Shown: positions 26,623 to 63,453, numbered from the stretch's first letter. The stretch: 64,000 nt of DNA from an uncultured Chloroflexia bacterium (GCA_963764785.1 CAVXTU010000001.1:930643-994642), one strand, 5' to 3'. Numbers and translations: made by a program. The notes: generated by a model from the letters alone, not told the origin.

Positions 26623-26746
26623 TCCACGGCCGTGGCTCGTGACAGGGGAGCTGGCACGGCGCCGCGAGAAGGTCGTGCTCGATCCCGGCGAAGGGTTGAC
26701 ATTCGAACGCATGTTCGGATAGCATCGCGCAGCCGTAACAGAACAG

Positions 26747-32517: not shown

Positions 32518-33332
32518 GCTGCTATCTCCCCGGCGTCGCGCGCGGTGGCTGCCAAGACCCTGCGAACCTCATCGCCGGCAGCGTTCAGGGGCGCCGCATC
32601 GGCACCGGCTCGGCGTCGCGGTCGCGCGGCGGTCACAGGCACCTCCGCGACGACGCTCCCCGGTCGCGGCGACATGACGAGCACCCGGTCCGAGAGGAAG
32701 ACCGCCTCGGCGATGCTATGGGTGACCAGCACGATGGTCGATCCGGTCTTGCTCCATAGCGCCACCAGTTCGTCGTCGAGTCGCTCACGCGTCATGGCGT
32801 CCAGCGCGCTGAACGGCTCATCGAGCAGCAGCACCTTGGGCTCGGGTGCCAGCGTGCGCGCCAGGGCCGCTCGCTGTGCCATGCCGCCGGAGAGCTGATC
32901 GGGATAGGCGTGGGTGAAGGCACTGAGGCCCGTCAAGGCCAGTACTTCCTGCGACCGCGACTCCCTCGTTGCGCCATCAACGCCAGCCAGCTCCAGTGGA
33001 AAGCCGACGTTGGCGAGCACGTCTCGCCACGGCAGCAATCGCGGTTCCTGGAAGACGAGGCCCACTCGTGGGTCGACTCCTTCGACCTCGGCCCCGAAGG
33101 TGCGCACGATCCCGCTATCGGCTGGCAGCAGCCCGCCGATGACGCGCAACAGCGTCGACTTGCCACAACCATTGGGCCCGACGATGGCCACGATCTCGCG
33201 TTCGGCCACCCGCAGGCTGACGTCCTCGAGCGCGATGAGCCGAGTGTCCCTGATGTCATAGCCGCGGGATACCCCGCGCAGCTCGATGGCGTCCAAAGTG
33301 GTGCGACCTCCGGCCGGGCCTTCGGACCTCAT
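32514..33332 (-). CDS. ABC transporter ATP-binding protein (SsuB-like); track ORF extends further upstream in-frame
   Basis: Walker A GPNGCGKSTLL, signature LSGGMAQRAALARTL, Walker B LLLDEP. Confidence 0.8.
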   Translation of the reverse strand: MRSEGPAGGRTTLDAIELRGVSRGYDIRDTRLIALEDVSLRVAEREIVAIVGPNGCGKSTLLRVIGGLLPADSGIVRTFGAEVEGVDPRVGLVFQEPRLLPWRDVLANVGFPLELAGVDGATRESRSQEVLALTGLSAFTHAYPDQLSGGMAQRAALARTLAPEPKVLLLDEPFSALDAMTRERLDDELVALWSKTGSTIVLVTHSIAEAVFLSDRVLVMSPRPGSVVAEVPVTAARPRRRAGADAAPLNAAGDEVRRVLAATARDAGEIAA

Positions 33333-33678
33333 GAGTCTGGAGATCGAAACGAACACACCGACATGACGTCGGCTGCTCGGGACGCGAGCGGCCATGCGCC
33401 GACCGGACGGGCCGACGGCCACCTCTCTCCTTCTCTCATCCGGACTATGACCGTCGGCTCCCTGCAAGGGATCCACCGCCACCGTGAGGTGGACGGGTCG
33501 TGGGCTGGCGGCCGGACCCTTGTCCTGAACCACCGACCACCGGTAGGGGATTTCACCCGACCCCGAAGGCGAGGCGTGCTATTGCGATGTTGTGACCTGA
33601 CTATACCAGCGCCGCAGGCCCATTCCTTGGACGCGATTCGTCCTGCTTGCCATCGGCCTATCGGCTACTGCACGTTCC

Positions 33679-48329: not shown

Positions 48330-50024
48330 TTACATCGACTCAGGGGCCGAGATCCCGAGCAATGCCAGAGCGTTTCGGAGGGTCGATCGTGTCACTGCCA
48401 CCAGCGCGAGGCGGCTGGCACTCGTAGTCGGATCGTCCGGGTCGATGACGCGGCGGTCGCGATAGTAGGCATGGAAGGTGGTGGCCAGCTCCATGGCGTA
48501 GGTGGTCACACCTTGTGTCTCCTCGGAGTGGGCGGCATCCTCCACGACTTCTGGCAATCGCAGGACCTCGCGGGCCAGTCCCGCTGCGACGTCGTCGCCG
48601 TCGAGTGCACCCGCGAAGCTCGCTGCGGGCATCAGCCCCGACACCTCGGCCTTGGCCAGGATGGAGCTGATTCGAGCGTGCGCATACTGCACGTAATACA
48701 CCGGGTTCTCAGACGACTGCTTGCGGGCAAGCTCGATATCCACATCGATCGGCGAGCTGGCGCCGCGTGATGCGAATGACCAGCGTGCCCCGTCCACCCC
48801 GACCTCTTCGAGCAGCTCATCAAGCGTCAGGAATTCCCCCGAGCGTTTGCTCATGGGGATCTCTTTGCCGTCGCGGATGAAGCGCACCCACGCGACCATC
48901 AGCATCTCGACCGCCTCCTGGTCGAAGCCCATGGCCTGAGCGGCATTGCGAACGCGGGCCACGGTGCCGTGGTGGTCGGCCCCCCACACATAGATGAGCT
49001 TGTCGTACCCGCGACTGAACTTCTCGGCGACGTACCCGATATCGGACGCGAAGTAGGTCGGCTCGCCCGTTGACCGGTAGATGACGCGGTCCTTGTCGTC
49101 ACCGAACGTCGTAGAGCGAAACCACGTCGCGTCCTCATGCTCGAAGATATGGCCGCCCGCACGCAGCTTGTCCACGCCTCGGCTCACCCACCCCTCATCG
49201 TGGAGACTGGCTTCGCTCTTCCAGATATCGAAGTGAACGCCGAGGCGTTCCAGGCTGGCTTCGATCCCATCGCGGATGCGCGCACCAGCCCACTCGCCGA
49301 CCACACGGTCGCGGTCGGCTCCCGGGGCGCTGGCGACGTCCCAGACCTCGGCCGGCATGTCGGCAACCAGATCATCGACATATTCGCCGCGGTAAGCCTC
49401 CTCCGGCAGGTCCTCGCCGAGCTTCCGCGCGGCCACTGAGCTGCCCAGGATGCGCACCTGGCGCCCCGAGTCGTTGAAGTAGTACTCCCGTGTGACGCGG
49501 TGCCCGCCACCCTCGAGAACTCGGCACAGGAGATCGCCCACGAAGGCTCCACGCGCGTTGCCGACCGTCAGCGGACCAGTCGGATTGGCCGACACGAATT
49601 CGACGTTCACATGGAGCGGGTCTTCAGGCGTGACTTGACCGAAGTCACTGCCAGCAGCTCGCGCCTCGTCGAGGATACCTTCGAGCCAAGTGGGCGAGAG
49701 GCGCATATTGAGAAAGCCCGGCGGAGCGACGCTGACGTCCGAGAGCGTCGTTCCAGCCGACACCGCCTGCAGCGATGTCGCGAGTGCTTCCGCGATCTGC
49801 AGTGGTGATCGCCGCATCGGGCGGGCCAGCTTCATGGCCAGGTTCGTTGCCACGTCGCCGTGATCCGGATTCCCCGGTCGCTCCACTTCGATCTTGGGGC
49901 GATCGACCGCATCGACTTGCGGAACCGAACCTTCTCGTGTCGCCTCTTCCCATGCGTCCTGGATGGTCGATCGCACTCGGGACCGGACCGAGAGTACCGC
50001 CGGAGCCTCGTGGTCGAGGGTCAC
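48330..50024 (-). CDS. argS: Arginine--tRNA ligase
   Basis: Class I HIGH context PNPTGPLTVGNARGAFVGD and the KMSKS-like MSKRSG motif. Confidence 0.9.
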   Translation of the reverse strand: MTLDHEAPAVLSVRSRVRSTIQDAWEEATREGSVPQVDAVDRPKIEVERPGNPDHGDVATNLAMKLARPMRRSPLQIAEALATSLQAVSAGTTLSDVSVAPPGFLNMRLSPTWLEGILDEARAAGSDFGQVTPEDPLHVNVEFVSANPTGPLTVGNARGAFVGDLLCRVLEGGGHRVTREYYFNDSGRQVRILGSSVAARKLGEDLPEEAYRGEYVDDLVADMPAEVWDVASAPGADRDRVVGEWAGARIRDGIEASLERLGVHFDIWKSEASLHDEGWVSRGVDKLRAGGHIFEHEDATWFRSTTFGDDKDRVIYRSTGEPTYFASDIGYVAEKFSRGYDKLIYVWGADHHGTVARVRNAAQAMGFDQEAVEMLMVAWVRFIRDGKEIPMSKRSGEFLTLDELLEEVGVDGARWSFASRGASSPIDVDIELARKQSSENPVYYVQYAHARISSILAKAEVSGLMPAASFAGALDGDDVAAGLAREVLRLPEVVEDAAHSEETQGVTTYAMELATTFHAYYRDRRVIDPDDPTTSASRLALVAVTRSTLRNALALLGISAPESM

Positions 50025-50788
50025 CGCGGCTCGCCGATCTGGACGACCAGCTCCGGCACTGCTAGTTGCACTGACCCCGGGAAGATCCTGGATGCGGCCT
50101 CGAGCGCCGCCCCGGGATCGTGTGCTTCAAGGATATGGGTCAGGATCAGGTGATCAGCTCCACCTCTTCGCGCGACATCGGCCGCCTGCTCGGCGCTGAG
50201 ATGATTGGCGCTGGCGATGGGCTCCTGCGTGGACCAAAACGCCTCACAGAGGACCGTGTCGCCCGCATGGATGAGCGGAAGCAGGTCGTCGGCCCGCCCG
50301 CAGTCGCCGCTGTACACGAGCCCCGGGCCATCTGGCTCCTCGCGGTCCGTGACCCTGAACGCATAGCTGTGCAGCGAGTGCGTGACCGGGTGTGCCTGGA
50401 GGATGAACGGCCCGATGACGCGAACGCCTTCGACTAGCTCCGGTCCCACGAGGATATCGAGGAAACCAGGTTCGCCAAGGAAGGCATCGTAGCGGCGGCG
50501 AAGCTCGTCGGGCACGTGCAGGCCAACGCTCCGTGGTTCCCCATAGTGGTAGTACAGCAGGTTGCGCAACGGAATGAGGTCGACGTGGTGATCGCCGTGC
50601 ATGTGGCTGACGACGATGGCTGTGATGGTCGAGGAATCCCGGTGGGGGAACACCGATCCAAGTGATCCCTGACCCAGGTCGAGCAGGATGGCTTCGTCGC
50701 CATGCTCGACCATGTATGACGAGGATGGCCGTCCGGGGTGTTCCGACCAGGCGGCCGATGAGCCCAGGACGGTGAGCTTCAGGCCCAC
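50021..50788 (-). CDS. MBL-fold metallo-hydrolase (RNase Z/ElaC-like)
   Basis: VVSHMHGDHHVDLIPL (HxHxDH). Confidence 0.65.
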   Translation of the reverse strand: MGLKLTVLGSSAAWSEHPGRPSSSYMVEHGDEAILLDLGQGSLGSVFPHRDSSTITAIVVSHMHGDHHVDLIPLRNLLYYHYGEPRSVGLHVPDELRRRYDAFLGEPGFLDILVGPELVEGVRVIGPFILQAHPVTHSLHSYAFRVTDREEPDGPGLVYSGDCGRADDLLPLIHAGDTVLCEAFWSTQEPIASANHLSAEQAADVARRGGADHLILTHILEAHDPGAALEAASRIFPGSVQLAVPELVVQIGEPR

Positions 50789-50829
50789 GACGATACAGGG
50801 TCAAGACTCCGGATCACGTTCCTGCTCCC

Positions 50830-51747
50830 CTATGTGCTAGCCATCGTCCCGTTCGCCAGTCTGACCGCGACGCCGGCCGCTTCGGTGATGCGATCCGGTA
50901 GCACCACGATACCGGCTTCGTGCGCATCCGCCCAGTGTGCATGCTTGCCGCCGACAGCAAGGACCGGGCTATGGCCAAGGCCCCGCAGCGCATGCGCGAC
51001 TGCGAGTGCAGCGGTCTGGTCCTCGCGCTGAACGACGGCGATGATGGCGACACGCGCACGGTTCTGCTCGATGACGTGAACCCAGCTGTTGACCGGTACG
51101 TCAGGGCCCAGATACAGCACGCCCACGCCCTGGCGGCGCACCGCCACTGAGAATGCCAGGGCACCCAATTCGTGCCGCGCCTTCGGCGGAAGGCCCACCA
51201 CCACGAGTGGTTCGCGCACCGCACCGGCAGCCTCGTAGAGGGCCGACAAGCGGCGGTGTACTGCCGCGCTCGCGGCATGCTCGGCGGCCACGTCGAGCTC
51301 TCCCGCGATCCATGCCTGGCCAAGCGCCACGAGAGCGGGCATCAACAGGTCGTCGACGATGGCTTCGAAACTGCCCTGGGCGAAGATCTCGTCGAGCGCC
51401 GCCCCGGTCGCCGCGATGTCCATGGCCTTGGCGGCTTCGGTGAAGCGGCCGATCAGCTCGGCTTGCCGTGCGTGTGCGGCGTCACCGCTCAGCGGCACCG
51501 AAGTGAGGTCAGGCGTGGGCGCGAGTTCCACCTCTCCGGCGAGTACGGCGCGACTGGCTTCGCTCGCAGTCCAGCCCGACTCGGTCAGTTCCCGGACACG
51601 GACAAGGGTCGCGATGGCGTCGTCGTCGTAGAGCCGGTAGCCCGACGGGGTTCGCTGCGGACTGACGACGCCGTAGCGCCGCTCCCACGCGCGGATCAGG
51701 GGAACGCTGACGCCGGACCGGATGGAGGCCTGCTTAATGCTGTACAT
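50830..51747 (-). CDS. litR: MerR-family regulator with C-terminal cobalamin-binding domain (LitR/CarH-type light-responsive regulator); probable start MYSIKQ at 51747
   Basis: N-term MYSIKQASIRSGVSVPLIRAWERRYGVVSP (MerR HTH). The C-term LVVVGLPPKARHELGALAFSVAVRRQGVGVLYLG...AIIAVV...LAVGG is a B12-binding Rossmann-like domain carrying the cobalamin His-ligand (DxHxxG-like) segment PKARHELGA. Confidence 0.7.
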   Translation of the reverse strand: MYSIKQASIRSGVSVPLIRAWERRYGVVSPQRTPSGYRLYDDDAIATLVRVRELTESGWTASEASRAVLAGEVELAPTPDLTSVPLSGDAAHARQAELIGRFTEAAKAMDIAATGAALDEIFAQGSFEAIVDDLLMPALVALGQAWIAGELDVAAEHAASAAVHRRLSALYEAAGAVREPLVVVGLPPKARHELGALAFSVAVRRQGVGVLYLGPDVPVNSWVHVIEQNRARVAIIAVVQREDQTAALAVAHALRGLGHSPVLAVGGKHAHWADAHEAGIVVLPDRITEAAGVAVRLANGTMAST

Positions 51748-51850
51748 CGTTTGTGCAATATAGCACGGCTTCGTTCCGTGACAAACACTTGACAATCATT
51801 GTACATATGCCCTATCCTCCGGGCATCAGGTACTACAAAGCCTGTACATA
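51739..51850. promoter_or_regulatory. Divergent promoter region with TGTACA-containing direct repeats (candidate LitR/CarH operator)
   Basis: TGTACA at 51740, 51800 and 51844, and ttgacaatcat-tgtacatatgc at 11-bp register; it lies between litR (-) and the DUF4397 genes (+). Confidence 0.5.
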
Positions 51851-52012
51851 GGACGAGTGAATGAGAGGAGAGTCGAACGAATGACCCATCGGTGGCCCGC
51901 TTAGGGACACACAACGCGGGGCGCAGAGCGCCTCATCCAGCTACACGGGGACCCTTGGGCGCCTCGACGTACCTACCAACCCCACATCCCTCCCGAAAGG
52001 ACACCACGCTTC

Positions 52013-52639
52013 ATGCGCAAGAACAAGGTTCAGATCCTCGCCACGACGGCTGCTCTCGCCGCCCTCATGGCCATCCCTGTCGCGACGACCGCTCAGGACG
52101 AGTCCATGGCTCCGACCGACGAGAACGCGATGGTGCGCGTCGGCCACTTCAGCCCTGACGCACCCGCCGTCGACATCTACGCCAACGGTGCCATCCTCGC
52201 GGGCCTCGAGGGCGTCGAGTTCGGCACACTCTCCGGTTACATCGAAGTGCCTGCGGACACCTACTCGATCGCGGTCGTGGTCGCCGGTCAGGACCCGGCT
52301 GACGCCACCGTGATCGGCCCCGCGGACATCCCTCTCGAGGCTGGTTCGAAGTCCACCATCGCCGCGACCGGTTTCGTCGCTGACATCGCTCCGGTCATCC
52401 TGAACGACAACGTCGACCTCACGGAGGGCCAGGCCCAGGTGCGCATCGTGCACTTCAGCCCGGACGCCCCTGCCGTCGACGTGGCGCCTGATGGCGCTGA
52501 CGCCCTCCTGACCGACCTGGCCTTCCCGAACGACACCGGCTATGTCGCGCTTGACGCTGGTGAATACGATCTCGAGGTCCGTGTCGCGGGTACCGAGGAC
52601 GTCGCCATCCAGCTGGACTCCCCTCGCGCTCGACGGTGA
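52013..52639 (+). CDS. DUF4397 secreted repeat protein, copy 1 of 3; C-terminal part frameshifted (1-nt insertion near 52615, ctggactcccc vs ctggatcccc in copies 2/3)
   Basis: Signal peptide MRKNKVQILATTAALAALMA; repeated VRVGHFSPDAPAVDIYANG / VRIVHFSPDAPAVDVAPDG motifs (DUF4397). The alternate frame 52542..52766 encodes the expected C-terminus. Confidence 0.6.
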   Translation: MRKNKVQILATTAALAALMAIPVATTAQDESMAPTDENAMVRVGHFSPDAPAVDIYANGAILAGLEGVEFGTLSGYIEVPADTYSIAVVVAGQDPADATVIGPADIPLEAGSKSTIAATGFVADIAPVILNDNVDLTEGQAQVRIVHFSPDAPAVDVAPDGADALLTDLAFPNDTGYVALDAGEYDLEVRVAGTEDVAIQLDSPRARR

Positions 52640-52802
52640 TACCGCCTACAGCGTCTTCGCCATCGGCTCGCTCGCCGACGGCACACTCACCGCTCTGCCG
52701 GTCGTCGATGCGACCGCCATCATGGGCGACGAGATGGCCGCTGAGTCCCCTGAGGCCAGCGAATAGCCAAGCATCCAACCCCCTTGATCCTGCCTGGTGG
52801 TC

Positions 52803-52831
52803 CGGTTTTGCCGGACCGCCAGGCTCCTTCA
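52803..52831 (+). terminator. Stem-loop cctggtggtccggttttgccggaccgccagg after copy 1 (repeated after copy 2 at ~53666..53694)
   Basis: Perfect 12-bp inverted repeat with a tttt loop. Confidence 0.45.
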
Positions 52832-52855
52832 TACCAATAGGGAACACACGACTCA

Positions 52856-53629
52856 TGACAAAGCAAGGTTCGGTCGGTCGCAAGAACAAGGTTCGAGATC
52901 CTCGCCACGACGGCTGCTCTCGCCGCCCTCATGGCCATCCCTGTCGCGACGACCGCTCAGGACGAGTCCATGGCTCCGACCGACGAGAACGCGATGGTGC
53001 GCGTCGGCCACTTCAGCCCTGACGCACCCGCCGTCGACATCTACGCCAACGGTGCCATCCTCGCGGGCCTCGAGGGCGTCGAGTTCGGCACACTCTCCGG
53101 TTACATCGAAGTGCCTGCGGACACCTACTCGATCGCGGTCGTGGTCGCCGGTCAGGACCCGGCTGACGCCACCGTCATCGGCCCCGCGGACATCCCTCTC
53201 GAGGCTGGTTCGAAGTCCACCATCGCCGCGACCGGTTTCGTCGCTGACATCGCTCCGGTCATCCTGAACGACAACGTCGACCTCACGGAGGGCCAGGCCC
53301 AGGTGCGCATCGTGCACTTCAGCCCGGACGCCCCTGCCGTCGACGTGGCGCCTGATGGCGCTGACGCCCTCCTGACCGACCTGGCCTTCCCGAACGACAC
53401 CGGCTATGTCGCGCTTGACGCTGGTGAATACGATCTCGAGGTCCGTGTCGCGGGTACCGAGGACGTCGCCATCCAGCTGGATCCCCTCGCGCTCGACGGT
53501 GATACCGCCTACAGCGTCTTCGCCATCGGCTCGCTCGCCGACGGCACACTCACCGCTCTGCCGGTCGTCGATGCGACCGCCATCATGGGCGACGAGATGG
53601 CCGCTGAGTCCCCTGAGGCCAGCGAATAG
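52856..53629 (+). pseudogene. DUF4397 protein copy 2; 1-nt insertion (aaggttcGagatcc) disrupts the signal-peptide region relative to copy 3
   Basis: ATG 52856 MTKQGSVGRKNKV then a frame change. Track ORF 52931..53629 starts at the internal Met and lacks a signal peptide. Confidence 0.5.
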
Positions 53630-53717
53630 CCAAGCATCCAACCCCCTTGATCCTGCCTGGTGGTCCGGTTTTGCCGGACCGCCAGGCTCCTTCATACCAA
53701 TAGGGAACACACGACTC

Positions 53718-55061
53718 ATGACAAAGCAAGGTTCGGTCGGTCGCAAGAACAAGGTTCAGATCCTCGCCACGACGGCTGCTCTCGCCGCCCTCATGGCCAT
53801 CCCTGTCGCGACGACCGCTCAGGACGAGTCCATGGCTCCGACCGACGAGAACGCGATGGTGCGCGTCGGCCACTTCAGCCCTGACGCACCCGCCGTCGAC
53901 ATCTACGCCAACGGTGCCATCCTCGCGGGCCTCGAGGGCGTCGAGTTCGGCACACTCTCCGGTTACATCGAAGTGCCTGCGGACACCTACTCGATCGCGG
54001 TCGTGGTCGCCGGTCAGGACCCGGCTGACGCCACCGTGATCGGCCCCGCGGACATCCCTCTCGAGGCTGGTTCGAAGTCCACCATCGCCGCGACCGGTTT
54101 CGTCGCTGACATCGCTCCGGTCATCCTGAACGACAACGTCGACCTCACGGAGGGCCAGGCCCAGGTGCGCATCGTGCACTTCAGCCCGGACGCCCCTGCC
54201 GTCGACGTGGCGCCTGATGGCGCTGACGCCCTCCTGACCGACCTGGCCTTCCCGAACGACACCGGCTATGTCGCGCTTGACGCTGGTGAATACGATCTCG
54301 AGGTCCGTGTCGCGGGTACCGAGGACGTCGCCATCCAGCTGGATCCCCTCGCGCTCGACGGTGATACCGCCTACAGCGTCTTCGCCATCGGCTCGCTCGC
54401 CGACGGCACACTCACCGCTCTGCCGGTCGTCGATGCGACCGCCATCATGGGCGACGAGATGGCCCGGGTTCGCGTGGGTCACTTCAGCGCTGACGCCCCC
54501 AACGTGGACGTCTATGCCAATGGTGGCCTGGCTCTGTCGGATGTCCCGTTCGGAGCGCTCTCCGGGTACCTTGAGGTCCCAGCTGGCACATATCGGTTCC
54601 AGGTGGTCCCGGCCGGTAACGCTCTTGAAGATGGCCCTGTGGTCATCGATGCCGAGGTCGACCTTGAAGGTGGCACGTCCACCACGGTGGCGGCGACCAA
54701 CGACCTCGCCAACATCGCCCCGGTCGTGATCAACGACCAGGCGGTCGCGTCAGGCCTCGAGGGTGCCAAGGTCCGAGTCGTCCACTTGAGCGCCAACGCG
54801 CCCAAGGTCGACATCGCCCCCGACGGTTCCGGCAAGGCGGGTGCGATCTTCAAGAACCTGAAGTTCGGTAAGGCCAAGGGCTACGCCGACGTTCCCGCTG
54901 GCGAGGTGGACCTGGAGGTCCGACCCGCTGGCAAGAAGAAGGCCGCTTTCGACATCCCGGCGCTCAGCCTGGAAGACGGCAAGGCCTACTCGGCGTTCGC
55001 CATCGGCCAGTTTCCCGACTCCTTCGACGTGATCCTGGTCGAGGAGGCCCTGGCCAGCTAG
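53718..55061 (+). CDS. DUF4397 secreted repeat protein, copy 3 (intact, longer; extra C-terminal DUF4397 repeats)
   Basis: MTKQGSVGRKNKVQILATTAALAALMAIPVATTAQDE..., then unique repeats ARVRVGHFSADAPNVDVYANG and AKVRVVHLSANAPKVDIAPDG. The track ORF starts earlier, in an alternate frame of copy 2. Confidence 0.7.
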   Translation: MTKQGSVGRKNKVQILATTAALAALMAIPVATTAQDESMAPTDENAMVRVGHFSPDAPAVDIYANGAILAGLEGVEFGTLSGYIEVPADTYSIAVVVAGQDPADATVIGPADIPLEAGSKSTIAATGFVADIAPVILNDNVDLTEGQAQVRIVHFSPDAPAVDVAPDGADALLTDLAFPNDTGYVALDAGEYDLEVRVAGTEDVAIQLDPLALDGDTAYSVFAIGSLADGTLTALPVVDATAIMGDEMARVRVGHFSADAPNVDVYANGGLALSDVPFGALSGYLEVPAGTYRFQVVPAGNALEDGPVVIDAEVDLEGGTSTTVAATNDLANIAPVVINDQAVASGLEGAKVRVVHLSANAPKVDIAPDGSGKAGAIFKNLKFGKAKGYADVPAGEVDLEVRPAGKKKAAFDIPALSLEDGKAYSAFAIGQFPDSFDVILVEEALAS

Positions 55062-55154
55062 CGATCCATCCCTCGTGTAGGACCCAGTGGCCCCCCATTC
55101 GGGTCCTACACGAAGCACTGCGACGACTCCCACGACCTTCCGAGGAGGGATCCG

Positions 55155-55679
55155 ATGATCAAGAAGCTCCTTGCCGGCGTCCTGCTGGCGACCCTGGCCG
55201 CCACCGCGGTTGCCCCAGTGGCCAGCGCCCACCACACCATGGGTAAGAACATCGTCGAGCGCGCCATCCAGGTCAACAACTACACCGGCGCTTTCGACAC
55301 ACTCCTCGCAGCCGCCCAGTGCGACTACTTCGGTACATCCGTGGTCGATGCACTGTCGCAACCCAGCACCACGCTCTTCGCTCCGACGGACCGGGCATTT
55401 CGAAAGCTTGGGCTGAACAAGAAGAATATCTGTTCAACCTACCAAGCTGACCAGGCTGCCCTGCTGGACATCCTGACCTACCACGTCCATGACGGTGCCG
55501 TCACCTACCGCGATGCCCGACGCGCCATCGGCACGTCCCTGACGATGCTCAACGGCGAGCCTGCCGCGATCACCGGTCGATGGTGGCGCGTCAAGATCGA
55601 CGGCGCCCGTATCGTCCTTCCGAACGTTCGTGCCAGCAACGGCTTCATCCACGTGGTCAACGACGTGTTGTTCCCCTAG
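55155..55679 (+). CDS. Secreted fasciclin (FAS1) domain protein
   Basis: Signal peptide; TLFAPTDRAF and NGFIHVVNDVL, the FAS1 H1/H2 motifs. Confidence 0.8.
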   Translation: MIKKLLAGVLLATLAATAVAPVASAHHTMGKNIVERAIQVNNYTGAFDTLLAAAQCDYFGTSVVDALSQPSTTLFAPTDRAFRKLGLNKKNICSTYQADQAALLDILTYHVHDGAVTYRDARRAIGTSLTMLNGEPAAITGRWWRVKIDGARIVLPNVRASNGFIHVVNDVLFP

Positions 55680-55700
55680 CTCATCACCCTCCCCCCTCTC

Positions 55701-55737
55701 CCGAGTCGGGCCGGTCCTTCGGGGCCGGCCCGACTCA
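55701..55737 (+). terminator. GC-rich stem-loop gagtcgggccggtccttcggggccggcccgactc downstream of the fasciclin gene
   Basis: Perfect 15-bp inverted repeat; no T-tract (common in high-GC genomes). Confidence 0.5.
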
Positions 55738-55862
55738 TTCGTGGGACCGCCGGTGGCACGACGTGCGGAGGCGTGGAGGTAGTGAGACGTGAGCAGTCGC
55801 ATCGGGCGGCCGAGCGGAGGCGCCAGAGCGGAGGCGCCAGAGCGTGGTTTGGTCGGGCTCGG

Positions 55863-56795
55863 TCAGCCTCGGGCTGTAGCGTCCCTCGATCGGTCACGCC
55901 GTGCCTCGAGACGCTTGGCAGAGGCGTCCATCTCCGAGAGGTGAGTCGCCAACTCCGAACGTGCCGCCTCGGCTGCGGGTGTCAGACCCTCGAGTTGGAA
56001 GATGCGCAGCTTGCGGACCAGTGGCATCACCACTTCATCGTGATGGATGCGCAAGTCGTAGATCCCGGCCATGGCCAACTGCGCCGCCTTGCGCCGGAAA
56101 TTGGCGATGCCGGCGCCAGGCATCTCGAAGGCCAGGATCTCGGCGACGGTGGCCTCGACCGTTGCCGACGGTAACGCCTGGGACGCCGCGATGAGGATGT
56201 CGCGATAGAACAGGGCGTGGAGGTTCTCGTCCGCCGAGATACGAGCCATGATGGCGTCTGCGACCGGGTCCTCTGAGTACCTCCCCGTGTTGCGATGGGC
56301 AGCTCGTGTCGCGACTTCCTGAAGCGCCACATACGCGAGCCCACGGAGCGGGTCCATCGTCGGCCGCTCGTAGCCCTGCTCGACCATGGTCATGCGCGAC
56401 TGCTCGAGCGCGGTGGGGTCCAGGTTTCGGGTCACCGTCAGGTAGTCACGTAACACGATCGCGTGGCGACCCTCCTCGGCGGTCCACCGACCGACCCAGT
56501 TGAGCCAGGCCCCGTCGCCATCGCCGAACATGCCGTAGATGAGCCGATGATACGAGGGCAGGTTGTCCTCGGTCAGGAGATTGACCTCGAATGCCGTGCG
56601 AGCGATACCGCCCAGGCGAGGTTGATCAGGTGTCCACGGTTCCTTGTCGAAATCGCGACCCTGACTGTACGGGACCATCTCGTGCGGAAACCACTCGACC
56701 GCGACCTTGAGGTGGCGCTCCAGCAGGCGGCCTGCCTCAGGCTCGAGGTCGATCAGTAATTGCCGCGCGTCGTACGGTCTGACCACCCGTTCGCC
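55863..56795 (-). CDS. Acyl-ACP desaturase (soluble di-iron, DesA1/DesA2-like); start approximate (track ORF extends upstream in-frame)
   Basis: LLTEDNLPSYHRLIYGMFG, WTAEEGRHAIVLRDYL, ISADENLHALFYRDI (di-iron EXXH motifs). Confidence 0.75.
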   Translation of the reverse strand, partial: GERVVRPYDARQLLIDLEPEAGRLLERHLKVAVEWFPHEMVPYSQGRDFDKEPWTPDQPRLGGIARTAFEVNLLTEDNLPSYHRLIYGMFGDGDGAWLNWVGRWTAEEGRHAIVLRDYLTVTRNLDPTALEQSRMTMVEQGYERPTMDPLRGLAYVALQEVATRAAHRNTGRYSEDPVADAIMARISADENLHALFYRDILIAASQALPSATVEATVAEILAFEMPGAGIANFRRKAAQLAMAGIYDLRIHHDEVVMPLVRKLRIFQLEGLTPAAEAARSELATHLSEMDASAKRLEARRDRSRDATARG

Positions 56796-56871
56796 TTGTG
56801 GAGGCGGCAACAGTTCGTCGGCTGTGATCGACTGGTCGTGCTCGGGACGACGGGTTTGTGTCAAGACGCCA

Positions 56872-58227
56872 TCAAGGATAGCGGGCCTGCATGGATGCGT
56901 GAGCCACCATCGCTTCCAGGTTCGCGGCCTCACCGAGGCCGGCCATGGCCGCGTACGCCAGTTCCGGCCCGGGCTGGCGTCGGAGCCGCTCACCGATCCG
57001 GGCTGGTGCCGGAGGCACGCAGCGCAACAGGCCTCGCACCGTACCAGCGACCAAAGCTCGTGAAGCCGTGTTGGGATCGAGCGCCAGGCCGACCAGATTG
57101 CGCTCCACAGCGGCAGCGCCATCGAACTGGTCAGTCGAGAATGGCATCGCGAGGATGGGGACTCCGAAGGTCAGCGCCTCGGTGACGCTGTTGTTTCCGC
57201 CGTGCGTGATGAGCAACGCTGCCTTCTTGAGCAAGGCAACCTGCGGCAGCGACGGGCGCACCAACCAGTCGCGGGGCAGCTCGCCGAGCTCGGCCGGATC
57301 GCTAGCTCCGATCGCCATCGCGACGCGGACGTCGATCCGACGCAATGCCACGGCGACCTTGGCCAGCACGTCCGTGCGGGCAGACAAGAACGTCCCGAAC
57401 GAGACGACCACGATCGGGCGGTCGTCATCACGGGCCAGCCACTCCGCGGCTGCGGCGTCGGGAACGTCCGTCCGCACGGCGCTCCCGACGAACGCATGCC
57501 GGGGGAGGCGCACCGTACGACCGGGATCATGGAGCTCTGCGGGATAGTTGTAGATGACGATGTCGCCGTGGGCCTTGAACGCATCCGGGACGGGCTCGTG
57601 TCCCGGACTGATGGTGTGCAGGGCCTCGGTGTAGGCGAAGCTGAATGCCTGGGTCACGCCGCGAGCCGTGGCTCGAAGCGATTCCATCTCCACTTGTTGG
57701 GGCGTGAATGCTGGAGGCCACGCCGACGGAACGCCGTAGATCTCGGGATCGACTGGCAGCGCCGTGGGATGGCCCAGAACGACATCGCCGTAGGGGACGT
57801 CGAGCGCCCGCAGGCCGATCGTCGCTCCGAATGCCAGGTGGTCGGTGAGGATGGCATCCGGAGCGTATGACTCCACGATGCGCATGGTCCGAAGGGCTAC
57901 CTGCCGGGGGTGCCACAGCAGGTCGACCGCGCGCGCCTCTGCCTGGAATCGAAGCGTTCCCACCATCCCGGTGCCAGTCGCTGCATAGAAGGCTTCCAGC
58001 GAGCGCATCTCCTCGCGCGGGGCGCCACCCTTCCGGATGATCCCGTCGTTCGAACCCCGCGACATGATGAGTTCGGCGTGCTCCATCCCGGCCGCGCGAA
58101 CCAGGGGGGCCATCGCCGGTCCGGTCGCGACGATGACGCGGTGGCCGCGGCGCTCCCAGGCGCCGGCAAGCGCCAGCAGGGGCATGGCGTGTGAGGCGTA
58201 GTCAGGACTGATGACCAGCAGCGTCAC
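56872..58227 (-). CDS. GT1-family (UDP-glycosyltransferase/MGT-like) glycosyltransferase; GTG start overlapping the upstream GT4 stop (GTGA)
   Basis: VTLLVISPDYASHAMPLLALAGAWERRGHRVIV N-term and C-terminal LITHGGNNSVTEALTFGVPILAMPFSTDQ (UDPGT signature-like). Confidence 0.7.
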   Translation of the reverse strand: MTLLVISPDYASHAMPLLALAGAWERRGHRVIVATGPAMAPLVRAAGMEHAELIMSRGSNDGIIRKGGAPREEMRSLEAFYAATGTGMVGTLRFQAEARAVDLLWHPRQVALRTMRIVESYAPDAILTDHLAFGATIGLRALDVPYGDVVLGHPTALPVDPEIYGVPSAWPPAFTPQQVEMESLRATARGVTQAFSFAYTEALHTISPGHEPVPDAFKAHGDIVIYNYPAELHDPGRTVRLPRHAFVGSAVRTDVPDAAAAEWLARDDDRPIVVVSFGTFLSARTDVLAKVAVALRRIDVRVAMAIGASDPAELGELPRDWLVRPSLPQVALLKKAALLITHGGNNSVTEALTFGVPILAMPFSTDQFDGAAAVERNLVGLALDPNTASRALVAGTVRGLLRCVPPAPARIGERLRRQPGPELAYAAMAGLGEAANLEAMVAHASMQARYP

Positions 58228-60461
58228 GCCGCGGCCTCGTTTTCGACGGCGAGCGACAACGCGCCTGCCCCCGCCGCGACCCGGTAGATGGCGCCCAGCG
58301 TCCGGGCCATGCGTTCCAGTGTGTATCGCTCCTCGACGGCTGCTCGGGTGCGCGACGCGGTCCTTCGATCGGTAGACAGTCGCAAGACACGTCGCATGCC
58401 CCTGGCGAGATCCGCGACCACCGTCGTATCGACCAGGACGCCGGTGATCCCGTCCTCGACGTAGCTGGCGGGACCACCTGAATCCGGAGCCAGCACGGGC
58501 AGGCCGGCCGCCATGGCTTCCACGATGGCCAGCCCGAATTCCTCCTTGCGGCTGCCGCATACATAGGCGCCGTTGGGTCCGATCTGGCTGCCCCATCCCC
58601 CTCGCGCAGCCGCGAGCACGAGCGCGACCTCGTCATTGGGCCGATGGCCGAGCAGGATGCAGCGGTCACGCACAACGGGATCACGGCCAAGGATCGCCTC
58701 GATCCGTGCGAGCTCGGCCGCTTCCGCCGGACTAGGGTCCTCGAGGTCTCCTCCGATGATCACGAGATTCGCTGATTCGGTCAGCTCGGAATCGAAGGCG
58801 AACGCTTCGACGACTCGCGCCATGCCCTTGATCTCGTGCAATCTCCCTACGCTGACCAGCAGTGGCAGACCGCGGCGATGCGAAGGAAGTGCCGCCACGG
58901 CAGACGCGAGCGATGGCAGGATGGCCGATCTCTCGCTCGATCCGATGCGGCTCGCTGCGACATCGGCTGCCCTCGTGTCCACGCCTTCCGGGACGACCGT
59001 GTACCGCGGCAGGCCCGCAGCGATGTCGATACCGACGAGATGTCGCAGGCGATCACGCATGCCGGGTCGTGGGAAGAGCACGACCTCCTGGGCTCCGGAT
59101 GACAGTCGGTCGACAAGGTCGACCCGGAACGACCACGCGGCGCGCGCGTCCTCGCCCGCGAACGACCGACGATCGAGTTCGCTACGGCGCTCGGCATCGT
59201 CGATGAGCGCGTGCGGGTCCGGGGCCAGAGTGAACACCGTCGGGATACCCAGCTCACGGGCGACGAGTGCGCCGGCCAGACTGCCGGGATCGGCCATGCG
59301 GAGATGGACGACGTCGGGTGCGCCGGTCGCCAGCAGTGCCGACCGGATGCCACGCTGCGCGGCGACCAGCGATGGCCAGGCGGACGTGAAGCTTGTCCCC
59401 TCGCCCTCGACCAGTGAGATGTGCTCGAACCGGTGCCCGCCCCGGATCTTGGTCGTGCTGCCCGCCTCGCCCCGCATGGCGCGACCGAGGGTTATCACCT
59501 CGGCGATCCTGGGTTGGTTCGAGAGGGTCGACCCAAGGCGCGACAGCAGTGTGGCGACGCCTCCGGTATCGCCCATCCCGGCCCGTGACATCTGTTCGTC
59601 GATCACCGCCCCAAGGTGGATCTGTGCGACCCGCAGACCAATCGAACGGTGGTGACTTGAGCGGGGCCCGCGGCGAGCCAATCGTCGCTGGGCACGCACT
59701 GCCTGGACAGCGTCGCCGACCCGGCCGCCATCACGCGAGAGTCCTCCGATGGATGGCGGCAGTCGCTCCGGGATCCGGTCAGCGAAGGCGGCGATGGCTG
59801 CGAGCCTCACGGTCTCATGCTCTTTGACGTCTCCTGCCGTCCGCTCCAGCACTCGACGCGCCTCGCGACCCGGCACCAGCCCGACCGTCTCGATGAGGTG
59901 TCGACGTGATCCCTCGTTCGAGGACCCGGCGAGCACCGCATGGATGGACGACAGCACGGCCTGCGGCTCATCCCTGGCCCAATGTGCCAGCGCCTGCTGG
60001 GCATGCATGCCGATGGTGCCGCCCCGCCTTATCGCCTGGGTCATCGTCGCGATGAGGTCCGTTCCGGCGGTTCGCCCCAGCGACGCCCAGGCCGCATGAG
60101 CGTCGTAGCCCGGTCTTCCACCCAGGACCAGGTCCACCAGCATGGCGTCGGCTCGTGATCCCGGGATGCGCCCCAGCGCGTGGATGGCGGCGAGCCCTAC
60201 GACTCCGTCGCTGTCATCGGCCACGGCCTCTCGGATCGGATCGAGCAGATCGATGGAGTTGGCGCCCGCACGAACGGCATCCTCTACGACCGCCACGAGG
60301 TCCGGCCGCAGACGCATCGCCGCGAGGATGGACGGAGTGCGCCGGATGCGCTCCAGCGCGGACGCCACCTGCAAGGCAGGTCTACCGGGACGCCCGAGCC
60401 ATTCCAGCCCAGTCTCGGCTTCCCATACGAGGTCTGGGGGTGCGAGAGTCTCGAGCGTCAT
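58224..60461 (-). CDS. HEAT-repeat-like N-terminal domain fused to GT4-family glycosyltransferase
   Basis: C-terminal EEFGLAIVEAMAAGLPVLAPDSGGPASYVEDGITGVLVD (GT4 EX7E motif); the N-terminal ~300 aa are helical-repeat-like. Confidence 0.65.
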   Translation of the reverse strand: MTLETLAPPDLVWEAETGLEWLGRPGRPALQVASALERIRRTPSILAAMRLRPDLVAVVEDAVRAGANSIDLLDPIREAVADDSDGVVGLAAIHALGRIPGSRADAMLVDLVLGGRPGYDAHAAWASLGRTAGTDLIATMTQAIRRGGTIGMHAQQALAHWARDEPQAVLSSIHAVLAGSSNEGSRRHLIETVGLVPGREARRVLERTAGDVKEHETVRLAAIAAFADRIPERLPPSIGGLSRDGGRVGDAVQAVRAQRRLARRGPRSSHHRSIGLRVAQIHLGAVIDEQMSRAGMGDTGGVATLLSRLGSTLSNQPRIAEVITLGRAMRGEAGSTTKIRGGHRFEHISLVEGEGTSFTSAWPSLVAAQRGIRSALLATGAPDVVHLRMADPGSLAGALVARELGIPTVFTLAPDPHALIDDAERRSELDRRSFAGEDARAAWSFRVDLVDRLSSGAQEVVLFPRPGMRDRLRHLVGIDIAAGLPRYTVVPEGVDTRAADVAASRIGSSERSAILPSLASAVAALPSHRRGLPLLVSVGRLHEIKGMARVVEAFAFDSELTESANLVIIGGDLEDPSPAEAAELARIEAILGRDPVVRDRCILLGHRPNDEVALVLAAARGGWGSQIGPNGAYVCGSRKEEFGLAIVEAMAAGLPVLAPDSGGPASYVEDGITGVLVDTTVVADLARGMRRVLRLSTDRRTASRTRAAVEERYTLERMARTLGAIYRVAAGAGALSLAVENEAAA

Positions 60462-60482
60462 CAGCTGCGCCAGGGTCCGCCG

Positions 60483-61923
60483 TCAGGCAGCCGAACCGAC
60501 TCCGTCCTCGACATGATCGGCGATGGTCACAGCGGAACGCCCGGGGCCAAGATAGGTACCCAAACCGACGTCAAGACGCGTCAGCACACGCGGCATCGCC
60601 TTGAGCAACGGCGCCACGTCGACGGTGGCGGGCTGGTTGATGAAGTCGACTGCGCCAGGGCTCAAGGGCGGGTTGGGCAGGAAGCGCATGGGCCAGGCTG
60701 CCACCTTGATGAGCGGCGCTGGACCCGGCAGCAGCGGCTTCTGAAGTCCGGCGATGGCCATGGCCCGATGGAGGACCTCACGCATCGAGAGCGTCTCGGG
60801 GCCGCCAACCTCGAAGACCTGATCGGCCGCGGCGTCCTGCTCGAGCGAATTGGCCGCCAGCTTGGCCACATCGGCGACGAATACGGGCGCCAGCTCCTGG
60901 TTGCCGAAGTTGGTCATGGGCACCACCGGGAGCACCCGAGCGAAGCCCAGGAAACGATTCAGTGAGACGTCGCCGGGACCGTAGATCCAAGTCGGACGAA
61001 GGATGGTCCAGGTCATGCCTGAAGCGCGGACGGCGTCCTCGGCCGCGGCCTTGGCGCGGAACCAATGGCGCTCGGCATCGTGGGCAGCGCCAGCGCCAGA
61101 CACGTACACGACTCGGCCTACCCCGGCGCGTTTGGCCGCGCCGACGAGACGCGCGGCACCAACGGCATCGACCTCCGCGAAGGTGTAGCCCTTGCCTGGC
61201 TGCTCGATCGGCAGGCCCGGGAAGGCCAGCGACACGACGAGCTCGTCGACGTCCTGCCAACGCCCCTTCGAGCGTCCCTTCCTGGCGCACGTCAGCGATG
61301 CGGATCTCGATGTCGTCGGGGAGCTGGCCGCGAGCGGCCTCGCCGCGGGATGACAGGACGATGACGTGCCTGCCGCGGCGTCGCAGTTCGCGTGCGATCT
61401 CGGAGCCCACGAAGCCGGTCCCGCCAGCGACGGCGATGGTGCCGGGAGTCGCATGCTCGGGATCGCCCGGAGCTTCGAAGATCTCATCGATAGCGGTCGA
61501 GCGGAAGTCGAAGACATGCTCGAGCTGGTTGTGGATGGCCATCCGATGCCCCAGTGAGCCGATGGGGCCGAACGGCATCTCGTAGTCCACGCGATCGTCC
61601 ATCCGAACGCCGCCATCGACCTCCGTGAAGCGGTGCTCGTGCTCCCATGACTTGTAGGGGCCGTGGAGCTGGATATCGCGGAACAGCGTTGGCTCCTCGA
61701 CATCGTCGATGCGAGTCTGCCATCGAGTGGGGATCCCGAAGAGCGGGCGCACGGTGTAGTCGATGACCGCACCGCTTTCGGTCCTGGGGTCGACCGTATG
61801 GATCTCGAAGCTCATGGACCGAGGAGTGATGCGTCCCAGGTTGCTGGCGCTCGAGAAGAAGCGCCACACTTCCCCGATCTTGGCCGGTACGAACTGGGAG
61901 CTGCGGAGTGTGTGCTTGGTCAT
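60483..61923 (-). pseudogene. SRPBCC (START-like) domain fused to TIGR01777-like NAD-binding epimerase/DUF1731; apparent frameshift near 61240-61290
   Basis: Frame A (60778..61923) carries the SRPBCC N-term and Rossmann AVAGGTGFVGSEIARELRRRGRHVIVLSSR, then degenerates after LEGALAG. Frame B (60483..) continues with GRWQDVDELVVSLAFPGLPIEQPGKGYTFAEVDAVGAARLVGAAKRAGVGRVVYVSG... Confidence 0.5.
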
Positions 61924-61937
61924 TGGCCTGCCTTAGA

Positions 61938-62032
61938 TGTACAAGGTTTGTACATCCCAAAGATAGGCGTACCCGGCGGTCTTGTCAAGCGTTGTACAAT
62001 GTTTGCTCAAGGCATCGAGCGGACCATGTACA
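61938..62032. promoter_or_regulatory. TGTACA direct repeats (aTGTACAaggttTGTACAtcc at 11-bp register, plus two more TGTACA) in the divergent promoter between the photolyase and the glycosyltransferase/desaturase operon
   Basis: TGTACA at 61938, 61949, 61993 and 62027; these resemble LitR/CarH operators. Confidence 0.5.
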
Positions 62033-62043
62033 GGCGAGGAGCA

Positions 62044-63453
62044 ATGCCGGCGATGAGCTGGAATACCGTCGTGGTGTGGTTCCGGCGTGACCTGCGGCTC
62101 GCTGATCACCCGGCTCTCAGCGATGCAGTGGCCCACGCCGAGGCCATCGTCCCTCTGTTCGTGCTCGATGAGCGCCTGATCCAGCGATCGCCCGTGCGTG
62201 CCTGGTTACTGGCACGCGCACTTGAGGCGCTCGACGACGCCCTCGCATCGCGCGGCTCGGGTCTGGTGGTTCGATATGGTGACCCCGAGGTGGTCGTCGC
62301 CGAAGTTGCGCGTGAAGTCGGTGCTTCGGCGGTCCTGGCCAGCCGTGACGTCACACCGTTCAGCTACCGGCGCGATCGCCTGGTAGCGAGTGCGCTCCAG
62401 CGCGATGGTCGTGATCTACACCTGCGCCCCGGGCTGCTGCTTGTCGAGCCGGAAGAGATGATGAGCGTCTCGGGAAAGCCATACGCTGTCTTCACGCCAT
62501 TCTGGCGAGCCCTGAGTTCAGTGCCGCGCCGGGAGCAACTTCCCGCGCCAGGGAGCGTCCCGCCTCCGGGCGCCGGGCTGCCTGCGACTCTGACGCCACC
62601 ATTCCTCCCCGAGAGTCCACCGCCAGCGCATGGGCTGCCTGACGCCCGCGAGGCTGCTGCCCAGGATCGTCTCAGGCAGTGGGTCACTGAGGGTCTGGAG
62701 CGGTATGGCGACCGTCGAGACGACCTGGGCGGGGAGTCCACGTCCCACCTGGGAAGCGACCTGCACCTTGGACTGCTGTCGCCCATCCAGGTCGAGGGCG
62801 CTGCGCTCGAGAGGGACGGCGAAGCGACGCCGTTCGTGCGACAGCTCGCCTGGAGGGAGTTCTACCACCACGGGCTCTTCCACCGGCGCACTGAACCGAA
62901 ACGGTTCGCTCACAGTCCGTACATGTCCGCGTTCCGCTCCGAGTCTGACGATCCAGACGCGGTCGCCGCGTGGCGGGCGGGCCGTACCGGCGTCCCCGTC
63001 GTGGACGCTGGCATGCGGCAGCTGGCGGCCACGGGCTGGCTCAGCAATCGGGCACGCCTCGTGGTGGCCTCGTTCCTGACTCGACACTTGTTGATGGACT
63101 ACCGCATCGGGGAGGTCCACTTCCTGCGCCATCTCATCGACGGCGATGTCGCCAACAACCTGGGTGGCTGGCAATGGACCGCCGGCGTCGGAGCTGACGC
63201 GCAGCCATGGTTTCGCATCTTCAATCCGGTGCTGCAGGGTCGCCGCTTCGACGCCGAAGGCGATTGGATCCGGAAGTGGGTTCCCGAGCTGGCCCTGGTG
63301 CCATCGCTCTACATCCACGCCCCGTGGGAGATGCCCGGCGAGGTCGCGGTGGAGTCCGGCGTCCGCCTGGGCTCGACCTACCCAAGCCCCATCGTGGGAC
63401 TTGTGGAGGGGCGTGAGCGAGCCCTTGCTGCCTTCCGCTCGATCAGGTCCTGA
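62044..63453 (+). CDS. phr: Deoxyribodipyrimidine photolyase (CPD photolyase/cryptochrome family)
   Basis: MPAMSWNTVVVWFRRDLRLADHPAL; the FAD-binding C-term WLSNRARLVVASFLTRHLLMDYRIGEVHFLRHLIDGDVANNLGGWQWTAG. Confidence 0.85.
   Translation: MPAMSWNTVVVWFRRDLRLADHPALSDAVAHAEAIVPLFVLDERLIQRSPVRAWLLARALEALDDALASRGSGLVVRYGDPEVVVAEVAREVGASAVLASRDVTPFSYRRDRLVASALQRDGRDLHLRPGLLLVEPEEMMSVSGKPYAVFTPFWRALSSVPRREQLPAPGSVPPPGAGLPATLTPPFLPESPPPAHGLPDAREAAAQDRLRQWVTEGLERYGDRRDDLGGESTSHLGSDLHLGLLSPIQVEGAALERDGEATPFVRQLAWREFYHHGLFHRRTEPKRFAHSPYMSAFRSESDDPDAVAAWRAGRTGVPVVDAGMRQLAATGWLSNRARLVVASFLTRHLLMDYRIGEVHFLRHLIDGDVANNLGGWQWTAGVGADAQPWFRIFNPVLQGRRFDAEGDWIRKWVPELALVPSLYIHAPWEMPGEVAVESGVRLGSTYPSPIVGLVEGRERALAAFRSIRS

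Follow-up and report, generated by a model that had tools for sequence, protein, structure and literature searches.

Genes at the Locus

Between positions 50830 and 63453 of a 64,000-nucleotide (nt) stretch of DNA (GCA_963764785.1 CAVXTU010000001.1:930643-994642; the whole stretch is referred to as the window), an uncultured soil Chloroflexota bacterium that belongs to Candidatus (Ca.) Limnocylindria/Limnocylindrales carries a litR/carH-like repressor gene, a cyclobutane pyrimidine dimer (CPD) photolyase gene (phr), and two intergenic regions in which the hexamer TGTACA recurs. CarH/LitR proteins serve as the model of light sensing through B12 and have been adopted as optogenetic tools, and photolyase is a standard light-induced gene. 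To our knowledge, nearly all characterized CarH/LitR regulons centre on carotenoid synthesis and come from few cultured phyla. The type of system described here is well understood and the advance is incremental: what is new are the target genes, a layout of paired repeats flanking the core promoters, and a conserved upstream open reading frame (uORF) of seven codons.

The regulator gene (50830..51747, minus strand) encodes a protein of 305 amino acids. It is followed on the same strand by a metallo-beta-lactamase-fold (MBL-fold) hydrolase gene and by argS; these three genes (48330-51747) point the same way and are separated by 41 and −4 nt, and the litR–MBL–argS order is kept in every orthologous locus that extends far enough (L001-L025). 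Because of this co-directional order, the essential argS gene would lie downstream of a predicted autorepressed promoter (no search for an internal promoter was made).

The plus strand opposite litR carries the DUF4397 gene block (52013-55061) and a fasciclin gene (55155-55679), identified by Pfam and synteny as one stretch (52013..55679), and the products of both carry signal peptides, as seen on inspection of the translations by eye. A PDB search returned no solved relative of DUF4397, and no link between DUF4397 and light was found in the literature. The DUF4397 gene block is interrupted by a threefold tandem repeat of 863 bp. At 52016-54464 (plus strand), a unit of 862-864 bp occurs three times in tandem with near-identical sequence, and every copy comprises the DUF4397 5′ end, signal peptide and two domains included; as this length is not divisible by three, the gene falls into three open reading frames (ORFs). 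The triplication either arose by amplification very recently or is an artefact of assembly.

A block of four genes (55863..61923) occupies the minus strand, encoding, in order of transcription, an SRPBCC–SDR (epimerase) fusion protein (60483-61923), a GT4 glycosyltransferase with HEAT repeats (58224-60461), a UDPGT-type, small-molecule-type GT1 glycosyltransferase (56872-58227), and an acyl-ACP desaturase (FA_desaturase_2; 55863-56864). The gene junctions measure +21, −4, and −11 nt and no terminator-like sites lie between the four genes; given these tight junctions and the lack of an internal terminator, an operon is the natural reading of this block, which also agrees with synteny. Among NCBIfam models, none scored above cut-off for the effector enzymes, and PDB searches gave general classes only: the closest class for the SDR half of the fusion is NDUFA9-type, and the closest relatives of GT1 are the small-molecule glycosyltransferases YjiC, OleD, and CalG. 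The SRPBCC–SDR gene is split over two frames in the window (near 61257), versus a single 479-amino-acid ORF in an orthologous locus (L001, 502-1941). This frameshift, together with a 1-bp-short promoter spacing (61988-61993; see below) and the unit lengths of the DUF4397 repeat, suggests indel errors of long-read assembly rather than a pseudogene. Inside the desaturase gene, positions 56407-56474 (plus strand) give an at-threshold Rfam match to ASdes, a mycobacterial small RNA antisense to desA, which probably reflects conserved coding sequence rather than a small RNA.

The phr gene (62044..63453, plus strand) is preceded by a GAGGAG Shine–Dalgarno sequence 5 nt before its ATG, and the closest solved relatives of its product are CPD photolyases (PDB 4u63, 1e-93; Escherichia coli 1dnp, 1e-75). 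Pfam confirmed each of the gene assignments made in the original prediction, namely those of the regulator, DUF4397, SRPBCC/epimerase, GT4-HEAT, GT1, desaturase, and photolyase.

The LitR/CarH-Like Regulator

The regulator is composed of a MerR helix-turn-helix (HTH) domain, a four-helix bundle, and a Rossmann B12 module (Pfam MerR_1, B12-binding_2, and B12-binding). The N-terminal winged helix (residues 2-66; PF13411, 1.9e-13; PF00376, 7.9e-10) aligns with the DNA-binding domain of CarH, and the four-helix-bundle subdomain matches PF02607 at 4.5e-11. Over its full length the protein aligns with Thermus thermophilus CarH (5c8d, 3whp) at an E-value of about 5e-32, with the Wx9EH motif and the His loop in register. 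These domains, this alignment, and these motifs bear out the LitR/CarH build (MerR-HTH plus B12-binding) that had been proposed for the protein.

The adenosyl-contact motif Wx9EH is represented by W146-x9-E156-H157. The lower-ligand loop reads A190-R-H192-E-L-G195, followed after x41 by A237-x-V239 and after x26 by G266-G267, so that the spacings x41 and x26 are preserved. In an alignment of 33 homologues (71-83% identity), W146, E156, H157, H192, G195, G266, and G267 are invariant. The classic Rossmann motif of CarH is D/E-x-H-x2-G-x41-S-x-T/V-x22-27-GG (PMC9304148), of which the regulator keeps the His, Gly, Val, and GG residues and every spacing but not the D/E and S. Wx9EH contacts the upper axial adenosyl group and, together with the His loop, discriminates CarH from CarA (PMC9304148); the regulator retains the features by which the literature separates CarH from the B12-independent CarA.

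TGTACA Boxes and 11-bp Repeats

TGTACA occurs eight times in the window, versus 2.7 occurrences expected from dinucleotide-preserving shuffles, and seven of the eight copies lie within two intergenic stretches (51741-51848 and 61938-62032). Three copies (51741, 51800, 51843) are located between litR and DUF4397, and four (61938, 61949, 61993, 62027) between the SRPBCC–SDR gene and phr. Both stretches are lower in GC than the remainder of the window. When they were shuffled with their own composition retained, 0.05 and 0.025 copies were expected versus the 3 and 4 observed, and the observed counts were reached in none of 20,000 shuffles. The coordinates of the seven boxes that had been assigned to two promoter regions are thus confirmed. 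Exact matches to TNNACA-N5-TNNACA number four in the window (0.45 expected), all of them inside the two intergenic regions; when one mismatch is allowed there are 23 matches: 10 belong to these regions, and the 13 remaining are as many as chance would give. Further operators elsewhere in the window were considered and rejected: the one-mismatch matches there are at chance level and lie in coding DNA, and the eighth hexamer (50311), within the MBL-fold gene, has no partner at 11 bp.

An independent consensus scan for sigma-70-type −35 and −10 hexamers, scored out of 12 positions, supports the view that both intergenic regions are divergent promoters, with sigma-70-like elements at 10/12 consensus positions. 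The litR promoter (51784..51757, minus strand; 10/12) has a −35 TTGTCA (51784..51779), a 16-nt spacer, and a −10 TATATT (51762..51757), and is conserved among orthologs. Its −10 ends 9 nt ahead of the ATG and no Shine–Dalgarno sequence intervenes, for which reason the litR mRNA is probably leaderless or nearly so. A putative autoregulatory pair, TGCACA-N5-TGTACA (51741..51757, minus strand; exact match), spans the last base of the −10 to the start codon (ATG TAC A). The presence of TGTACA next to the regulator promoter, as originally predicted, therefore stands, with the correction that the copy at 51741 overlaps the litR start codon itself (ATGTACA).

On the opposite strand, the DUF4397 promoter (51789..51818, plus; 10/12; conserved) has a −35 TTGACA, an 18-nt spacer, and a −10 TATCCT. 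Three tandem 11-bp repeats, GTGACA/TTGACA/TGTACA (51778..51805, plus; exact and one-mismatch matches), extend over it, the middle one being the −35 hexamer and the GTGACA repeat also covering the litR −35 on the other strand. A downstream pair, ACTACA-N5-TGTACA (51832..51848, plus; one-mismatch match), corresponds to about +8 to +24 of the predicted DUF4397 transcript.

The operon promoter in the second region (61988..61960, minus strand; 10/12) has a −35 TTGACA (61988..61983), which is a TnnACA repeat in itself, a 17-nt spacer, and a −10 TATCTT (61965..61960). The exact pair TGTACA-N5-TGTACA (61938..61954, minus) lies 5-6 nt downstream of this −10, over the predicted transcription start. A further TGTACA (61993-61998) is shared between the two divergent promoters: on the plus strand it overlaps TACAAT (61995-62000), the sole good candidate for a phr −10 (61993..62000 for box and hexamer), and on the minus strand it forms the repeat adjoining the operon −35 (61998-61983). 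The spacing between this box and the −35 is 10 bp in the window, versus 11 bp in 18/18 orthologs. The fourth box (62027..62032, plus) lies within the predicted phr 5′ untranslated region (UTR).

Activation in the manner of MerR, which acts on promoters with an over-long spacer of 19-20 nt, was considered and rejected: here the hexamers are close to consensus and separated by 16, 17, or 18 nt. Since near-consensus hexamers are combined with spacers of 16-18 nt, the four promoters should be strong unless blocked, and repression by occlusion fits this arrangement.

Conservation Across Limnocylindria Loci

Species-representative genomes were scanned with an alignment of the regulator, which yielded 73 loci, 70 of them from Limnocylindria-type metagenome-assembled genomes (MAGs); the ortholog comparisons cover about 28 species-level genomes, in stretches of 20 kb. 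In 28 loci the regulator is found at 66-86% identity within a shared neighbourhood, the order of which is phr and the divergent SRPBCC-SDR/GT4-HEAT/GT1 genes, then fasciclin and DUF4397 on the opposite strand, then the divergent litR/MBL-fold/argS genes. The desaturase gene is present in only about 4 orthologous loci and is a variable cargo gene.

Across 24 orthologous Limnocylindria loci (493 kb), TnnACA-N5-TnnACA occurs 117 times, versus about 1.1 occurrences expected from base composition; the loci are related, hence these are not 117 independent events. All 117 lie at five shared promoter positions and none elsewhere, and this absence of matches outside the promoter positions in 493 kb is a direct measure of specificity. 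In the repeat logo across loci, the T (0.97) and the A, C, and A (0.99, 0.99, and 0.96) are fixed almost throughout and the two middle bases vary, giving forms such as TCGACA, TCAACA, TGGACA, and TAGACA. Columns of the boxes and promoters are 90-100% identical, versus 30-50% for the spacers.

The individual promoters are conserved in detail. The SRPBCC promoter has the form TGTACA-N5-TTGACA-N17/18-TAnnnT-N5/6-TGTACA-AAC-nn-TGTACA in 18/19 loci; its −35 TTGACA is present in all 19, its −10 TAnnnT is conserved, and its downstream TGTACA pair lies 32-36 bp from the −35 T in 19/19. The shared box reads TGTACA in 18/19 loci and its flank (ACAT-TGTACA-AC) is at least 90% conserved. The fourth box is more variable in position, with a TnnACA located 19-26 bp from the shared box in 13/18 orthologs versus 34 bp in the window. 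In the DUF4397 triplet, examined over 29 loci, the three repeats read nnn[A/G]CA (28/29), TTGACA (29/29), and TnnACA (27/29); all 29 have the downstream pair at a distance of 41-44 bp from the −35 T, with its two repeats keeping TnnACA in 22 and 21 loci. The litR pair TnnACA-N5-TGTACA is present in 28/29 orthologs with variable middle bases.

These data bear on whether the repeats are functional at all. The clustering would be a by-product of AT-richer intergenic DNA, of promoter hexamers, and of the Met-Tyr N-terminus of the regulator, and would have no operator function, if base composition and coding constraints accounted for it; TTGACA and TACAAT do contain or create TnnACA or TGTACA, and Met-Tyr followed by a codon with initial A imposes ATG-TAC-A. 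However, composition-matched shuffles never attain the observed counts, and the boxes 3′ of the −10, which are not promoter hexamers, are the best conserved columns. At the litR start, T..ACA is retained, with varying middle bases, in the partner repeat that lies 11 bp before the start codon in non-coding DNA, and Ser3 is encoded by AGC in 27/27 listed Met-Tyr-Ser orthologs, although AGY makes up only 36% of Ser codons in the genes of the window. Such a chance origin is therefore hardly credible, and the boxes are better regarded as operators.

The identity of the bound protein is indicated by the position of the repeats. A repeat pair is found on the regulator's own start in 70/70 Limnocylindria loci, and such a pair also occurs on litR-like genes in unrelated metagenome contigs, which argues against the notion that a different factor (e.g., LexA or a regulator encoded elsewhere) binds the repeats and that the neighbouring litR is incidental. 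That notion draws on some downstream repeats that read GAAC-N7-GAAC, resembling the alphaproteobacterial SOS box, but the conserved letters are T..ACA rather than GAAC, and the SOS boxes of this genome are palindromic (CGAAC-N4-GTTCG) and lie beside dinB, not phr. We regard it as very unlikely. LexA/SOS control of phr in particular was rejected, as Cheo-type boxes are found beside dinB (26706-26754) and none in the phr and litR intergenic regions. The LitR/CarH-like protein itself is thus the favoured candidate for binding the repeats.

The same repeat grammar is found in a second, distant group of Limnocylindria LitR proteins (about 55% identity, Met-Tyr-Thr start; loci L024-L068). Their genes carry TnnACA-N5-(A/G)TGTACA on the start codon and a pair about 50 bp upstream on the opposite strand; in addition, −35-containing pairs are followed by a second pair 42-53 bp later. 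The sites precede an SRPBCC gene and genes for an amine oxidase, DUF1365, and a cyclopropane-fatty-acid-synthase-type (CFA-synthase-type) protein, an SDR gene also adjoins litR (e.g., L053, 10001-16635), and in several of these loci phr, the SRPBCC–SDR fusion gene, and the fasciclin gene adjoin litR too. The two groups have no genome of the set in common, which speaks against paralogy; they are more likely lineage-specific versions. One MAG holds two copies of the distant type. The LitR regulons of Pseudomonas include a photolyase (phrB), a short-chain dehydrogenase, an FAD oxidoreductase, and a fatty-acid-modifying enzyme, and the gene set of the distant group resembles these light-induced genes (PMC9758184).

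A blind metagenome scan for TGTACAAACNNTGTACA returned at least 120 matches, mostly in unrelated low-GC DNA. Among the matches listed, six lie on or beside litR-like genes (29-56% identity), two of which encode confirmed MerR plus B12 proteins. One of these two is the LitR gene of a contig (L106) with TGTACA-N5-TGTACA pairs, where it is divergent from a gene for an extracytoplasmic function (ECF) sigma factor. In the LitR–LitS system of Streptomyces coelicolor, a class I LitR is combined with a light-induced ECF sigma factor and is encoded divergently from its target, an arrangement that this contig matches. The window locus and its orthologs differ in having no sigma factor gene, and their regulator appears to act directly on the effector promoters.

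Comparison with Characterized CarH and LitR Operators

CarH tetramers bind tandem 11-bp direct repeats (nnnnTnnACAn) placed over the −35 or −10, with three repeats in Thermus and four in Bacillus; in myxobacterial operators, full and degenerate repeats are mixed over about 55 bp, and repeat pairs suffice for some CarH proteins (PMC9304148). The 11-bp register of TnnACA half-sites, which the original prediction had likened to CarH operators, agrees with this repeat unit. The window protein resembles the CarH proteins of T. thermophilus, Bacillus megaterium, and Myxococcales in domain order, Wx9EH, His loop, and full-length similarity, and the sites share the 11-bp T..ACA direct repeat with one copy containing the −35 (PMC9304148). 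In both cases the regulator gene is autoregulated (here, by prediction) and linked to light-protection genes.

The differences from CarH are also clear. The conserved 20-kb locus has no carotenoid genes, and the predicted targets are instead phr, the SRPBCC-SDR/glycosyltransferase operon, and DUF4397–fasciclin. The repeats are mostly pairs on both sides of the core promoter, not a run of three or four, and one of them overlaps the regulator start codon on an apparently leaderless mRNA. Within the window protein, Ala stands in place of both the acidic residue and the Ser of the classic B12 motif.

Class II LitR proteins (Pseudomonas putida and P. mendocina; PplR1, PmlR2) share the TGTACA hexamer and the placement of sites with the window locus (PMC9758184). 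DNase footprints of a Pseudomonas LitR cover two TGTACA-N12-TGTACA sites, of which the first overlies the −35 and the second falls between transcription start and start codon (PMC9758184). Whereas these half-sites are separated by N12, those of the window are separated by N5. Furthermore, the Rossmann B12 module is missing from these class II proteins, which require a LOV partner; in the window protein both B12 subdomains are present, and no LOV gene adjoins its gene.

A Conserved uORF in the DUF4397 Leader

The leader of the DUF4397 transcript (about 190 nt) contains a 7-codon uORF, MTHRWPA* (51881..51904, plus strand), with its own GGAG-rich Shine–Dalgarno sequence. Across 21 species its start codon is ATG (19 species) or GTG (2 species), and Arg-Trp is invariant, with one synonymous AGG codon. 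The stop falls at the identical codon in 20/21 species, as TGA, TAG, or TAA. The 3′ half of the uORF and its stop lie in a hairpin, which is followed by two more hairpins and by the Shine–Dalgarno sequence of the main gene (51863-52012); covariation in these hairpins is weak. The uORF may provide a second, translation-linked control step. A riboswitch in this leader, notably one for cobalamin, was considered and rejected: Rfam yielded no match for it when the whole window was searched at the gathering threshold, nor when the leader was searched at E≤5, and the folding energies are ordinary (z of +0.5 in the window and −1.5 in an orthologous leader, L021).

A Proposed Photoregulon and Its Mechanism

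That phr, the DUF4397 block, and the minus-strand glycosyltransferase operon are regulated together from two regions, as originally predicted, is well supported at the level of sequence: the boxes overlap four promoters, and their positions are conserved while the spacers drift. We consider it quite probable that the locus is a class I LitR/CarH photoregulon of Ca. Limnocylindria, in which a regulator oligomer loaded with adenosylcobalamin (AdoCbl) represses four promoters in the dark and light releases them. We infer the binding by the regulator, its oligomeric state, and the transcript starts, and its dependence on light and AdoCbl is proposed by analogy with known CarH proteins.

In the dark, the AdoCbl-loaded regulator would oligomerize and bind TnnACA direct repeats phased at 11 bp, of which TGTACA would be the strongest version. 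The repeats occupied would be those over the transcription start and start codon at litR; those spanning the −35 and spacer, plus those at about +8 to +24, at DUF4397–fasciclin; those on and next to the −35, plus those covering the start, at the SRPBCC operon; and those on the −10 and within the 5′ UTR of phr. Occlusion would thereby hold every one of the four promoters shut, that of the regulator itself included. Light would photolyse the Co–C bond, the oligomer would fall apart, and the four transcription units would be released together.

Several observations weigh against this proposal. The B12 motif is imperfect, with A190 in place of D/E and A237 in place of S; the Rossmann domain matches PF02310 (E 5.7e-6) at 26.6, below the Pfam gathering cut-off of 32.1; and the NCBIfam CarH equivalog NF052513 gives the regulator 144 bits, versus a cut-off of 400. 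Outside the DUF4397 −35 triplet, the repeats form pairs about 31-35 bp apart that are out of 11-bp phase, unlike characterized operators, which are one contiguous run of 3-4 repeats. Moreover, two of the repeats are merely −35 hexamers (TTGACA), which fit TnnACA by themselves, and the start-codon box is partly forced by the conserved Met-Tyr-Ser/Thr/Asn N-terminus. Because of the motif replacements and the Pfam and NCBIfam scores below cut-off, the regulator appears to be a distant member of the class I CarH/LitR family and not a close ortholog of a characterized CarH. As for the split pairs, one oligomer may bridge both, or two may be bound side by side.

Given the two motif replacements, there is serious residual doubt whether the regulator performs AdoCbl photochemistry. 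The sites may be its operators even if the protein is no AdoCbl photoreceptor and needs a partner protein or another signal (singlet oxygen, LOV, redox). The departures at A190 and A237 and the sub-threshold Rossmann domain are in keeping with such a non-photoreceptor, as is the fact that LitR of classes II-V and CarA regulate without B12 photochemistry (PMC9758184, PMC9304148). Against this, Wx9EH and the His loop, the discriminator between CarH and CarA (PMC9304148), are intact and invariant in the 33 homologues, and the conserved locus has no gene for a LOV, CarS-like, or anti-repressor protein. A regulator that is blind to light through B12 is thus judged unlikely, and AdoCbl-dependent photorepression remains the preferred reading.

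A more specific proposal is that B12-sensed light induces photorepair together with the DUF4397/fasciclin exports and the SRPBCC-SDR/GT4/GT1 (and, where present, desaturase) operon through split repeat pairs, with the uORF as a second control; this we put forward tentatively, at somewhat short of even chances. If true, it would provide the first physiological context for DUF4397 and a new operator geometry for CarH proteins. The "surface/lipid remodelling programme" of the original prediction is speculation, a guess from domain names that may serve reasonably as a label and no further, and a glycosylated lipophilic protectant is equally possible.

In a broader sense, the locus points to a conserved CarH-type operator set in an abundant, uncultured class of soil and freshwater Chloroflexota, and predicts light-responsive genes for organisms still beyond cultivation. 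In it, photolyase is joined to an SRPBCC–SDR fusion, fasciclin, DUF4397, and glycosyltransferases, a linkage that day/night metatranscriptomes could check. The locus also offers natural split paired-repeat operators for studying how CarH oligomers read DNA.

Other Features of the Window

Positions 38638-48306 (plus strand) hold an ORF of 3222 amino acids with more than 20 apparently identical tandem units of about 64 amino acids (...VPDLVDSPEADVAAALDAVGLVAGDRTEAADESIVAGNVISTDPSAASEVDPGSAVAYVVSTGPAQVA), which look PASTA-like by eye. GC rises to 0.75 over 40-44 kb, and the identity of the copies may reflect assembly behaviour.

Two Cheo-type LexA boxes, CGAACGCATGTTCG and AGAACAGATGTTCG, are located at 26697-26755 (plus strand), the first of them within a promoter of the form TTGACA-N17-TAGCAT. 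The boxes follow closely on a dinB-type polymerase gene (25375-26622) and precede a small ORF that begins at 26810 and looks like an SOS-controlled small gene. In addition, an FMN riboswitch (33424-33574, minus strand; 83 bits, above the gathering score) is located upstream of an ABC-transporter ATPase gene (32514-33533), a position that suggests a riboflavin-related transporter.

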